This document shows positions 1,686 through 10,700 of a stretch of DNA of 64,000 bases, piece by piece (position 1 is the stretch's first letter; each line of letters begins with the position of its first letter). Both the position numbers and the translations under genes were made by a program. The stretch is from Octopus vulgaris (taxonomy: Eukaryota), in assembly GCA_951406725.2 (NCBI GenBank), contig CATOCA020000001.1, positions 2,232,001 through 2,296,000 on the forward strand, read 5' to 3'. The notes beneath the pieces are model-generated. The model did not search any database and had not been told where the DNA came from. It worked only from the letters and a program-made list of their open reading frames with translations.

Positions 1686-1736
1686 CACGTGGCCCTTCTA
1701 CTGTCTGGACCTCTTTGTCTTCAAATATTGGCCTTG
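1686..1736 (-). CDS. Tandem mini-exon E ([17 protein letters not shown])
   Basis: atttatttcag acceptor, G|GTGAGT donor, 51 nt, phase 1-1; diverged paralog that keeps FEDKxVQT. Confidence 0.75.
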
Positions 1737-4700
1737 CTGAAATAAATATTTCCAAGATTATACTTTATATTAAAATTTATTTAATGAACATCGATATTTT
1801 ATAATTGTGAAATATTCCTATAACCAATAGTCAAGATTAACCGTCCCAAATCTCCCCACTCTGTAGGTAACGAAGGGCTTCTCCCTAAGAGTGGAAAGCA
1901 GATTGTATGAGACTTGTGTACGGACAGATGTACAACACAATAATGAAAGATAGGTTGTGAAGATAGAAGACATGCAAGGGGTCGGAGGCAAATGAAGCCA
2001 GCATGCTCCACTGGATGTACATCATCAGTGTTCAGGTAAGTCGCAGTGGAAATGTCTTAAGAGAAAATCTGGGTATAAGAGTCATCCGATGTAGAGTTCA
2101 AAAGAGAGATCTTTCATAGTATGGTTATGTGATGCATATGGATGAGGTGATCAGCATAAAGAGATGCGGATCTCTAAATGTGGAGAGAATCTGAGGAAGA
2201 GGAAGACTGAGGAAGACATGGGGCAAAGTGGTGAGAAATGATGTTCAGATGCTGAGCTTCACACGGAAGATAACTAAAACGACTGAGACAATCAGCAATT
2301 TTCTGTGCTTGAAAAGACCCAACTGGCTAAGTAACATCGAGGCCATCAAGGCATGTCCTTTATGTGCATACCTTCCACCCTGAACACAATCTGTCCCCTA
2401 AGAAACATCTCCACAAGCCAAATTCCAAACACCCTTCCCCACCATGATCCCTAACAAGATATAAAATGTTAGCTGAGGGTACACGATGTCCCTATGTCTA
2501 AATAAGTTTACATTTCAGACATACAAATGTAAGAGAGTTAATGAATTATAGCTTATTAATTATCATGATAATTGGGTATATATGTGATACAATGGCACTG
2601 TGCTTGACGGTGCAATACTAGATATCAATATAGATTGTATATAATCTGAGTAAAGAACATATAGCCTTCATTTCTATGAATATGATTGTGTCTCAGCACA
2701 GCAAATATTATGGTAGTTCCATGAGCAAACGAAGAAAGATATAACCAAGTCCACTGCCAAATACTAATGATTAATTCATTTCCCGGTCAAATAACAATGA
2801 CTATCTTTCATTAAATAATTTGAACGCAACGATGTCAGTGTGCACACAAGGCAGAGTGAAGAGGCCTGAGAGAAGTGTTAGACATAAGAAGCATCAGATG
2901 TGGTGTAGAAGAGAGACAACTGCACTGGTATTGTCATGTGTATGGATGAGGAGTGCTGTGGGAAGAAGCGTTACACCCTAACAGTGGAAGGAACCCGTGG
3001 AAAGGGGTGACCCAGGAAGACAGGGCATGACGTGGTGAAACGACCTTCGAACGTTGGGCCTCACAGAGGTAATGGCAAGAGACAGAGACCTCTGGAAATA
3101 TGATGTGATTAAGAGGACCCGGCAAGTGAAGTGAGATCACAGCTGTAGCCTATACCAGTGTCACATAACCAGCCCTTTTTAAAAGTACCCTTGAATCACA
3201 GAGTGATAAGTTGCGCTTGAGAAGAATTTCTGAGTCAAGTAAAACCAAAAACCAGAAATCACAAATCAAAATCAAATCAAGATCGAAATCAAAATGGAAA
3301 TTGTAATTATGGCCGATGCCAGTGCCGCGTGGCTGGCACCTGTGCCGGTGGCACCATAATAAGTACCATTCAAACATTGTTTGTTGCCAGTGCCGCCCGA
3401 CCGGTTCCCTGTGCCGGTGGCACGTAAAAAACACCATCCGAACGTGGTCAATGCCAGCCCCAACTTCAACTGGCTCCTGTGTCGGTGGCAAGTAAAAGGC
3501 ACCCACCACACTCTCGGAGTGGTTGGCGTTAAGAATGGCATACATATGTGGAAACCTTGCCAGATCACATTGGCGCCTGGCGCAGCCTACTGCCTCGCCA
3601 GTGAAATCGTCCGACCCATGCTACTATAAAAACGGATGTTAAACGATGATGAATGAGATGATGATGATGATGATGATGATGATGAGTTCTCGTGACCAAA
3701 TGACAAAATTAACTCTATTGTGTCTTCTAATTTGAACATTATTACCAACAGCATTAACCTCAATGGGTATTTCATAAACTCTCAGTAAATCGATATCTTT
3801 AATTCAATTATTATACAGATAATCGTTCAATTGGAAAATAGGAAAGGAAGCTGTTTTCAGTTATTCTTTCGAGCACAATATACTCGGGGGAAGAAAACCT
3901 TACATAAATCAATTGGGAACTATTATTTTATACTCACCAATTGCCTGAGATGTAGCCCCTAATTCCTGACATGTAGCCTCTGTTTGTACACACCTGTCCT
4001 CACATTTTGGAGCCCCTGAAATAAATATTTCCAAGTTTTACATTTAAAAATAAACTTTCTTCATCTTTATTTTTATTAACCTCTATCTTGTTATTGTGAG
4101 ACATTCAATTTCTGTCATTAATGGTCAAATGTTGACCATTATGGTTTTGGTCAATATTTCTGTACTTTCTGCAGTGGTCCCATGTAGCCCAATATGTCCA
4201 CAATAAAACAGACTAACATTTCTATATTCACCATCTGCCTCTCTCTCTCTCTCACACACTCTCTCTCTCTCTCTCTCTCTCTCTAAAAACACCTTAAATA
4301 TTCTAACAATGTTGCAATTATCTCATTTAATTAACACCTTGATGACAGTTTTCTCTTAGCTTTGTCTTTCTTTTCTTATAACTGTGCCAAATCTATGGCA
4401 TGGCACAGTCCTCTCATCTCTAGAATTCACTAATCAACATTCCTCTCTAATTAAGTAAAACTGAGCCCATAAAGACATGTCCTTTATGTGCATACCCTCC
4501 ACCCCGCACACAATCTGTCCCCTAAAAATCATCTCCACAAGCCAAATTCCATACACCCTTCCCCAACATGATCCCTAACAAGATATAAAATGTTAGGTGA
4601 GGGTACACGATGTCCCTATGACAAAATATGTTTACATTTCAGACATACAAATGTAAGAGAGTTAATGAATTATAGCTTATTAATTATCTTGATAATTAGG

Positions 4701-7700: not shown

Positions 7701-10700
7701 AGGGATTGACGAGCGATTATAAGAGTTGAAGAGGCCCTGTAGTAAGGTGAGGATCGGCAATGAGTATAGTGAAGAATTCCGGATAGAAGTAAGAGTTCAC
7801 TAGGGATCATTCCTAAACCCCTCGTTTTCATCATAGTCCACCAGGCAATAAGAGAAATGACAAATCAAAAGCAATTCAAGATCGAAATCAAAATGGAAAT
7901 TGTAGTTGTGACCGATGCCAGTGCCGCCTGACTGGCACCTATTCCTGTGTCACGTTATAAATACCATAGAAGCATAGGTCCTTGTCACTGCCGCCTGACT
8001 AGTTCCCTGTGCCGCTGGCACGTAAAAAGCACCATCCGAACGTGGTCGATGCCAGCCCCCACACCGACTGGCTCCTGTGTCGGTGGCACGTAAAAGCACC
8101 CACCACACTCTCGGAGTGGTTGGCGTTAGGAATGGCATACATATGTGGAAACCTTGCCAGATCACATTGGAGCCTGGCGCAGCCTACTGCCTTGCCAGTG
8201 AAATCGTCCGACCCATGGCACCATAAGAAACGGATGTTAAATGATGATGATGAGGATGATGACGATGAGGATGATGATGATGATGATGAAGATGATGAGT
8301 TCCATGACCAAATGACAATATTAACCCTATTGTGTCTTCTAATTTGAACATTATTACCAACAGCATTAACCTCAATGGGTGTTTCATAAACTCTCAGTAA
8401 ATCGATATCTTTAATTCAATTATTATACAGATAATCGTTCAATTGGAAAATAGGAATGGAAGCTGTTTTCAGTTATTCTTTCAAGCACAATATACTCGGG
8501 GAAGAAAACCTTACAGAAATCAATTGGGAACTATTATTTTATACTCACCAATTGCCTGAGATGCAGCCCCTAATTCCTGACATGTAGCCTCTGTTTGTAC
8601 ACACCTGTCTTCAAACTTTGGAGCCTCTGAAATAAATATTTCCAAGTTTTACATTTAATAATAAAATTTCTTTATCTTTATTTTTATTAAACTCTATCTT
8701 TTTATTGTGAGACATTCAATTCCTGTCGTTAATGGTCAAATGTTGACCACTATGGTTTTGGTCAATATTTCTGTACTTTCTACAGTGGTCCCATGTAGTA
8801 GCTCAATATGTCCACAATAAAACAGACTAACATTTCTAAATCCACCTCCCTCTCTCTCTCTCTCTCTCTCTCTCTCTAAAACACATTAAATATTCTAACA
8901 ATGTACCAATTATCTCATTTAATTAACACTTGATAACAGTTTTCTCTTAGCATTGTCTTTCTTTTCTTATAACTGCCAAATCTATGGCATGGCACTGTCC
9001 TCTCATATCTAGAATTCACTAATCAACATTCCTCTCTAATTAAGTAAAACTGAGCCCATAAAGACATGTCCTGTATATGCATACCCTCCAACCCGCACAC
9101 AATCTGTCCCCTAAAAAACATCTCCACAAGCCAAATTCCATACACCCTTCCCCAACATGATCCCTAACAAGATATAAAATGTAATGTGAGGGTACACGAT
9201 GTTCCTATGACAAAATATGTTAACATTTCAGACATACAAATGTAAGAGAGTTAATGAATTATAGCTTATTAATTATCATGATAATTGGGTATATATGTGA
9301 TACAATAGCACTGTGCTTGACGGTGCAATACTAGATATCAATATAGATTGTGTATAATCTGAGTAAAGAACATATAACCTTCATTACTATGAATATGATT
9401 GTGTCTCAGCACAGCTAATATTATGGTAGTTCCATGAGCAAACGAAGAAAGATATAACCAAGTCCACTGCCAAATACTAATGATTAATTCATTTCCTGGT
9501 CAAATAACAATGACTATCTTTCATTAAATAATTTGAACGCAACAATCAAGACCAAAGGGTGAAACACTCAGAAAACTGTGCCTCTTTTAGCATTAATATC
9601 ATCTAAAATCTAACAAGAGTGAGAAAAAGAATGACTATATGGATGGTAAATGTTGTTCAAACAATGTAATAAGTGTATATTATATATAATTATAAAGAAG
9701 GATTTGTGTATTCAAGTCAAATTCAATTTCTGATTGTATATTTTGTATAAACACCAATAATTTGTTTAAATATAAACAGATGTTCACGGTTCAATATTTA
9801 ATTTAACATTTAATAAAATTAAGTTCATGATGAATATTCTTATACAGAGTTAACATTTAATTATAATTTTCTAATTTGCAACTACAAAATGTATTCTAAC
9901 CAGAGACATTCAGGGTACACAACCCCAGAAAATACAAAATATTACGACAGACATCTGGCTACATAACAACATCAAGAATAACCTATCAGAAAACTTACGA
10001 AAAATCTTAGTAGAAAAACAAACAACTATTTTATTAACTCACGAGTTTACACCTAAAAAACATAAATTATAGTTCCATAGAAGACAATATTAACTCTATT
10101 GTGGCTTTTAATTTATCCATTTGACCAAACATGTTAAACATGACTTTATGAAATTTCAGTAATATTTTTAATACAATTACTTTAGAGCTAAACTTTCAAA
10201 TGGAAATTAGAAATGGGATCTGTTCTCCACCATTCTAATAAGCAAAATAGCTGAGGTGAATGTAAAATCTATAGAAATTAATTAAGATCTCTAATTTTAA
10301 ACTCATCAACTGTCTCTGCCACAGTCTGCACTCCCTTCTCTTCAAACTTTGGACTCTCTGAAATATGTGTCTCCAAGTTTTATAGTTATTTATAGCACAA
10401 TCCCTTTATATTTATTAATAATCTATATTTTATTAATGAGAAACATTCATACCATCAATGGCCAACCAGCGATCATAATGCTTTTGGTCAATATTTTTAT
10501 ACTTTCAACCGCGGACCCATGTAATAGCCAATATTTAGCTCCAAAACGAACTCTAGTTGATCTTTGTAAATTTCCTCTCTCTGTTAAGATATCCTAAATA
10601 ATCTAACAATGCTGTAATTATATCACTTAATTATCACCTAATTAACAGTTTATCTGTAGGCTTTGGTTTCCTTGCTTATATCTACGCCAAATCTATTGCA

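Follow-up and report, generated by a model that had tools for sequence, protein, structure and literature searches.

A variable array of linker exons with candidate LC8 sites in an octopus ankyrin-RING-death-domain gene family

The linker-exon array and its gene

The stretch of Octopus vulgaris DNA analysed here (the window; 64,000 nucleotides, assembly GCA_951406725.2, contig CATOCA020000001.1, positions 2,232,001 to 2,296,000) was found to carry on its minus strand a gene whose 518-amino-acid protein consists of ankyrin repeats, a C3HC4 RING, a linker and a death domain, the last assigned by structural modelling. The linker is encoded by an array of short related exons. A six-frame scan of the window found VQT at five minus-strand places within the first 10.4 kb, in five related segments that follow the RING exon in phase 1 and have an AG acceptor in a shared acceptor context. 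Up to the homologous donor, the segments are 51, 78, 78, 78 and 51 nucleotides (nt) long, and all five read P-x-[FC]-E-[DE]-[KR]-x-V-Q-T, in agreement with the coordinates and the pattern given in the original prediction, which was made from the letters of the window. Chance occurrence of the motif at the five places was rejected. The segments lie in duplicated units at intervals of 1.7-2.5 kb. Over about 950 nt the inner three share 96% identity, against 69-74% for pairs including an outer copy; the outer copies have otherwise diverged, as stated in the original prediction. The segments are as follows.

10307..10357, minus strand: linker copy 1 (EEKGVQTV), AT donor; passed over in contigs in which the RING is joined to later copies
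8549..8626, minus strand: linker exon 2 (78 nt, EDRCVQTE), AG/GT, phase 1-1; joints from the RING and to copy 3
6044..6121, minus strand: linker exon 3 (78 nt, EDRCVQTE), AG/GT; upstream joints with the RING (3/4 runs) and copy 2, downstream joint with copy 5
3938..4015, minus strand: linker exon 4 (78 nt, EDRCVQTE), AG/GT; loose ends run into death-domain exon 1 sequence (2 of 4 runs)
1686..1736, minus strand: linker exon 5 (51 nt, EDKEVQTV), AG/GT; joint in 1 of 4 runs, the contig concerned departing from the window sequence at 1694

The donor is GT in copies 2-5 and AT in copy 1, where the other GT/GC sites, 35-55 nt in, are all out of frame and reading through meets a stop after 25 codons. 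The AT donor was present in 10/10 copies of the copy-1 type in the paralogous stretches fetched. An assembly error at this donor was rejected, because a public contig over 10162-10435, with four listed differences from the window, has the same donor letters. The array therefore consists of four intact linker exons and copy 1 with a dead donor, and the prediction of five symmetric exons stands for copies 2-5 and fails for copy 1, which is either a pseudo-exon or a rare terminal exon. In the model P0008 of O. sinensis, an exon of the copy-1 type is read through as the terminal exon; the dead donor may thus be shared between species, and could yield a form lacking the death domain. Among copies of the linker-exon-5 type, 4 of 10 have a CT donor. 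Left of the window, in the DNA that ends at window base 0 (L031), there is a sixth copy on the minus strand, starting at L031:9669; it is degenerate, lacks QT and has AA in place of the AG acceptor.

Splicing was studied in the contigs of four runs, each from a different study and presumed to be RNA, for which 15 of 38 joints were listed. At predicted splice sites, the pre-RING exon was joined to the RING exon in 3/4 runs and the RING exon to copy 3 in 3/4 and to copy 2 in 1/4; copy 2 was joined to copy 3, and copy 3 to copy 5, in 1/4 runs each, and loose ends led from copy 4 to death-domain exon 1 in 2/4. The joints from the RING pass over copy 1, and none of the 15 of 38 joints listed reaches it. 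The linker exons are thus spliced, with in-frame skipping, somewhere in the family. Since identity to the exon regions of the closest paralogs is 93-100%, the joints show splicing and skipping for the family and not for the window locus, and an apparent skip can also arise from a paralog with fewer copies; the predicted splicing with in-frame skipping is upheld to that extent, without assignment to this locus.

Extending the gene model leftward, as had been proposed, revealed two death-domain exons and a stop codon. Together with 12 window exons (copy 1 omitted) they form one open frame of 518 codons. Of 382 residues aligned with P0042, a public model that bears the name Octopus vulgaris, has only two linker exons and starts differently, 381 were identical. 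The remaining exons, in coding order, are given below.

35801..35878, minus strand: probable first coding exon (ATG), GT donor, part of the open 518-codon model
33957..34114, minus strand: ankyrin exon, AG/GT, in frame
32361..32406, minus strand: short ankyrin exon (46 nt), AG/GT, in frame
29691..29845, minus strand: ankyrin exon with an invariant framework and hypervariable sites among paralogs (28 distinct copies compared)
19119..19155, minus strand: short ankyrin exon (37 nt), AG/GT, agrees with P0042
15800..16009, minus strand: ankyrin exon, AG/GT, agrees with P0042
14026..14201, minus strand: last ankyrin or pre-RING exon, 100% identity to P0001; joined with the RING exon in 3/4 runs
11475..11614, minus strand: C3HC4 RING exon, ends in phase 1; PF13920 at 28.9 bits (cut-off 27); collinear with MIB2 and counterpart of its first RING
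L031:7116-7045, minus strand, left of the window: death-domain exon 1, 72 nt, phase 1-1
L031:5503-5304, minus strand, left of the window: death-domain exon 2 with the stop codon

The C-terminal domain is a death domain according to the predicted structure of P0001, in which residues 205-291 aligned with death domains at Z 9.5-11.5 (root-mean-square deviation about 2.3-3 for most), caution being advised for helical bundles at Z below 13. The top 20 rows of the structural alignment were all death domains; FADD aligned at Z 11.5 (deviation 2.5, 86 residues), and the FADD, ankyrin and RIPK1 domains lay at Z 11.0-11.5. The likeness to FADD, RIPK1, TRADD, PIDD and ankyrin lies in this structural alignment, whereas sequence identity was 14-25%, with no clear orthologue. 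Among seven family proteins scanned, PF00531 was above the cut-off in P0009 and P0036, below it in P0032 and unmatched in P0001. Foldseek gave 0 matches at E 0.001 or better, and a sequence search of the PDB gave ankyrin matches only among the 60 listed. The linker is predicted to be disordered: residues 152-202 of the P0001 model had no secondary structure and a predicted local distance difference test score below 50, which, coming from a 30-sequence alignment, is a proxy only.

Origin of the linker exons and the paralog family

With a length of 72 nt and phase 1 at both ends, death-domain exon 1 is symmetric like the linker exons, whose acceptor and donor context it shares. The 150 nt upstream of six linker copies were found to be 63-75% identical to the upstream intron of death-domain exon 1 (90/144 to 107/142), with scores of 9-49 against a best shuffle of -6, so that the match beats all 200 shuffles in 6/6 copies. 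Several linker types are exactly 72 nt long and align to the death-domain exon without gaps; the 72-nt form SPKFEDKGVQSDAQLLGATSKQG matches the death-domain exon TPKLEEKCLQDVAKLLGVNWQQV, which reads KCLQDV, at 10 of 23 positions. These sequence comparisons show a common origin of the linker and death-domain exons, and the linker exons are read as duplicated, degenerate copies of death-domain exon 1. The death-domain exon, being part of a conserved fold, is taken as the older form. A quick tree built on 52 upstream introns, with long branches present, intermingled the linker and death-domain classes, and a single linker clade was rejected (approximately unbiased test, p 0.0006), which may reflect repeated births or exchange of flanks.

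The genome (2.8 Gb, 227 contigs) was searched for paralogs, and 100 further 10-kb stretches around them were taken for comparison. A profile search gave 204 units in 51 segments, of which 24 were dropped for having no recognisable donor or in-frame length. This left 136 linker exons, of which 111 were intact (AG/GT, no stop), and 44 death-domain exons. The family comprises at least 37 paralogs. In the 37 with both the RING and the death-domain exon in view, the number of intact linker exons was 0 (4 genes), 1 (9), 2 (9), 3 (10), 4 (2), 5 (1) or 6 (2), which bears out the expectation that copy number would vary. Public isoform models of one O. bimaculoides cluster, which are annotations, have three, four or five repeats.

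Two homologue searches (40 and 14 matches) returned Octopus names only, and five further family-like matches from a profile search of cluster representatives, whose results were dominated by long ankyrin proteins, were all named Octopus; the family may therefore be restricted to octopuses. No description of the family or the array was found in the literature searched, most subscription papers lying outside its reach. Most paralogs are located on small chromosomes (G000 contigs C28-C31) or near the ends of C4, C7 and C9. In one paralog (G000:C30:19163900-19183899) the VQT anchor is gone (EDQQV, EEKQV) from the 54-nt linker exons, five or six in number, although their splice sites are kept. Another locus (G000:C29:29604188-29605018) contains six 51-nt linker exons about 166 nt apart, a far shorter duplication unit than that of the window. 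The public models P0010, P0015, P0039 and P0239 have unrelated C-termini in place of the death domain, which may be real exon shuffling or annotation fusions.

Candidate LC8 sites and the role of the linker

The published LC8 consensus is [D/S]-K-x-[T/V/I]-Q-[T/V]-[D/E] (PMC3078936). K or R is common at -3, counted from Gln(0), and validated binders include those with VQTD, VQTE and KETQT anchors (PMC6607443 and its supplement). Copies 2-4 read D-R-C-V-Q-T-E and fit the consensus with Arg at -3 and a non-hydrophobic +2; the predicted LC8-type motif is thus matched by the inner copies, in a region predicted to be disordered. The pattern [KR]x[TVI]Q[TV] was present in 69/111 intact linker exons against 0/44 death-domain exons, the stricter [DS][KR]x[TVI]Q[TV][DE] in 40/111, and the exact consensus with only Lys at -3 in 5/111; residues at -1 were mainly V, T and I. 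The genome contains an intact open reading frame for an LC8 of 89 amino acids (L041:1489-1758). Complex prediction with two LC8 and two linker chains gave a median of 0.35 against 0.33 for the best control, a difference that counts neither for nor against binding. From the motifs, the K/R-x-V-Q-T sites are likely to bind LC8 dimers. Few changes would have been needed to make such a site, because the death-domain helix already had Lys(-3) and some paralogs Gln(0).

The ankyrin exon 29691-29845 was compared among 30 loci (L208-L237), which gave 28 distinct copies after one broken and one duplicate copy were dropped. In these, 25 of 51 residues were invariant and six sites, picked post hoc, had a ratio of non-synonymous to synonymous differences (pN/pS) of 3.5-4.4; the six sites presumably line the ankyrin binding groove. 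For the exon overall pN was 0.116 vs a pS of 0.108, and 10 of 14 fourfold sites were invariant. The pattern suggests diversifying recognition, with selection on the binding surface. The expanded IAP families of molluscs are similar in their lineage-specific growth of apoptosis regulators with new domain architectures (PMC8917759), whereas the octopus family has no BIR domain and its variable part is the ankyrin repeats.

The role that the evidence supports best, and to which we give a modest preference, is that of a variable-valency linker on which LC8 would pair the chains of a sensor-adaptor protein with the death domains pre-paired. Death domains work by oligomerising. The variable ankyrin surface would recognise ligands, as in an immune-type sensor, and the death domain would hand the signal to a death-fold adaptor. 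Between the RING and the death domain the linker copies form a linker whose exons are optionally spliced, and LC8 dimers on the K/R-x-V-Q-T sites would zip two chains in parallel, pre-pairing their death domains. Exon number, exon choice and motif strength would determine LC8 occupancy, and with it the threshold of pairing. In the multivalent LC8 clients ASCIZ, Nup159, 53BP1, GKAP and KANK1, too, several motifs anchored by Q lie in disordered sequence beside an oligomerising domain (PMC3078936). In contrast to these, the octopus array has one predicted site per symmetric exon, derived from the folded domain's own exon, and the number of sites varies among paralogs and splice forms. Weak sites can be rescued by multivalency (PMC12057147).

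The rival that survives best, though we consider it unlikely, is that the exons are tolerated by-products of the duplication of death-domain exon 1, a flexible spacer at most, with VQT an inherited accident spread by recent duplication. Selection was assessed by pairwise comparisons with the introns as neutral clock. Relative to the intron rate, amino-acid change was 0.25-0.36 at Gln(0), 0.45-0.47 at Lys(-3) and 0.9-1.1 at -1 and +1; in the eight non-motif codons it was 0.99-1.00, a neutral rate that favours the spacer. The Gln codons vary synonymously, and Gln(0) is kept through this turnover across types 30-40% diverged in their introns, which argues against an accident, as does the predominance of V, T and I at -1. 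A model named O. bimaculoides contains four diverged copies, three of which retain K-x-VQT. A broader motif was kept in 6/8 disjoint pairs against 1.3 expected (0/2000 simulations), or 0.6 expected with the other exon codons as clock. In a motif-blind subset of 34 segments, picked solely by the position of the death domain, Gln(0) and Lys(-3) were again above neutral. Selection on Lys(-3) and Gln(0) is therefore likely on these comparisons, though the motif is often lost. Conservation of the anchor among paralogous exons, which the original prediction required for QT, is mixed: Gln(0) and Lys(-3) exceed the neutral level, and in the motif-blind subset Thr(+1) and Val(-1) do not.

Several results weigh against the LC8-pairing role, and a number of them favour the spacer. 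With 14 disjoint pairs, P was 0.06 in the pre-set test of four codons, and the broader motif above was picked after inspection of the data, with some loci found through VQT queries. In the motif-blind subset the strict motif was found in 35 of the 58 intact exons and in 7 of the 15 types (four 48-nt copies lying outside the types), retention was 1.37/3.28 against 0.16 expected (median P 0.07), and identity was 0.28 vs 0.42 neutral for Thr(+1) and 0.43 vs 0.41 for Val(-1). Exchange of intron flanks between units may have blurred the neutral clock. Lys(-3) is partly inherited, K or R being present at -3 in 40/44 death-domain exons, and Q(0) pre-exists in 2/44. About half of the linker-exon types have lost the motif, some copies are degenerate and lack QT, 13 of the 37 paralogs have no intact strict motif, four have no intact linker exon, and many linker copies have dead splice sites. 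At the window locus the valency is at most four, and copies 1 and 5 have a disfavoured Val at +2. A hydrophobic +2 and clustered charge are unfavourable for LC8, and many anchor-bearing peptides fail to bind it (PMC6607443); VQTV had 0 occurrences in four supplements of that paper. The immune role is inferred from two things, the architecture and the ankyrin variability.

In its widest form, the pairing reading would make the family octopus immune-type receptors in which the MIB2 ankyrin-RING1 part has been combined with a death domain, the duplicated first-helix exon has turned into a modular LC8 zipper, the threshold is dialled per gene and splice form by the number and strength of one-exon sites, and the ankyrin surface is diversifying; we put this forward tentatively, as a possibility with the odds somewhat against it. 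The array is a traceable example of how a short linear motif can arise in a folded domain's exon, the intermediates having survived in the genome. Because the genes have 0-6 sites that differ in quality, they also form a natural series in which the effect of LC8 valency on dimerisation can be tested. The large octopus ankyrin-RING-death-domain family, labelled 'MIB2-like' in databases, emerges as a candidate for a diversified sensor system, in an animal that lacks adaptive immunity.

The RING, the remaining rivals and the surrounding DNA

Public models of the family are named 'MIB1/MIB2-like', and its ankyrin repeats and RING align collinearly with MIB2 of octopus (P0243) as far as residue 852, shortly after the first RING of that protein (35% over 302 columns, E 6e-49; in another alignment 30% over 421). 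Membership of MIB1/MIB2 was rejected, since the N-terminal MIB domains and the terminal RING are absent and the gene ends in a death domain. The MIB/HERC2, ZZ and SH3_15 domains were lacking in 7/7 proteins scanned, and the 10 MIB_HERC2 matches in the genome all lie outside the window's contig. The segment after RING1 and the terminal catalytic RING of MIB2 are replaced by the linker and the death domain. The strict motif occurred after the first RING in 0 of 107 full-length MIB2-type proteins (5 matches, all earlier), and the octopus family has dozens of copies, unlike the one or two of MIB1/MIB2. A fusion with a death domain is plausible, because MIB2 acts in RIPK1 death signalling (PMC5912950).

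The original prediction took the protein for a RING ligase with dimerisation tunable through its LC8 valency; this version, in which the ligase is active and the linker stands in for the MIB coiled coil, we regard as improbable. The RING has all eight C3HC4 zinc ligands and PF13920 above the cut-off, and its fold matches the RINGs of XIAP, cIAP and IDOL, which we take to act as dimers. The array occupies the place of the inter-RING segment of MIB2, and in MIB1 the coiled coil with RING3 drives dimerisation. That unit was, however, the only active one, RING1-2 of MIB1 having no detectable activity (10.1101/2024.03.01.582834); the available part of another preprint (10.1101/2023.09.15.557927) makes no mention of MIB1. 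The octopus RING aligns with the first RING of MIB2, and in human MIB2 mutation of the first RING leaves cFLIP ubiquitylation intact whereas mutation of the second abolishes it (PMC7815719). The reading as a MIB1/MIB2-type ligase carrying a docking array is weakened by the death domain at the end of the gene and by a RING whose counterpart in human MIB2 is dispensable for ubiquitylation.

The residue after the last RING Cys, which we take from RING alignments to be the linchpin position, is Phe in the window copy, and 5 of 65 stored RING ends of the family end in CPMCR. Arg is the most effective linchpin there; Phe lowers and does not exclude activity, because XIAP works with Tyr at this position (PMC12326332). 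Ligase activity is doubtful, since the linker and death domain replace the catalytic terminal RING of MIB2, and the RING is more likely to be structural or weakly active than the main output.

Least probable is a role of the sites, through LC8 or another partner, in localising, sequestering or stiffening the protein as a cytoskeletal tether or rod-like spacer, without setting a pairing threshold: the motif evidence is equal to that for LC8 pairing and multivalent LC8 turns the disordered linker of KANK1 into a rod (10.1101/2025.07.16.665182), whereas the octopus sites lie 17-26 residues apart and directly abut the death domain.

Around the exons, a (GAT)n-type array of roughly 9 kb (window about 19620-29100, GC skew about -0.96) was found within one intron, and a shorter one near 32500-33700. 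Mobile-element fragments, reverse-transcriptase-like and transposase-like as judged from their translations, were present at 50037-51163 and 53112-53735, both on the minus strand, and in L032-L035. Tandem arrays of a SINE-like unit were found to the right of the gene (window about 61000-63700) and of another short repeat unit to its left (L036-L040 also being cited for these arrays).

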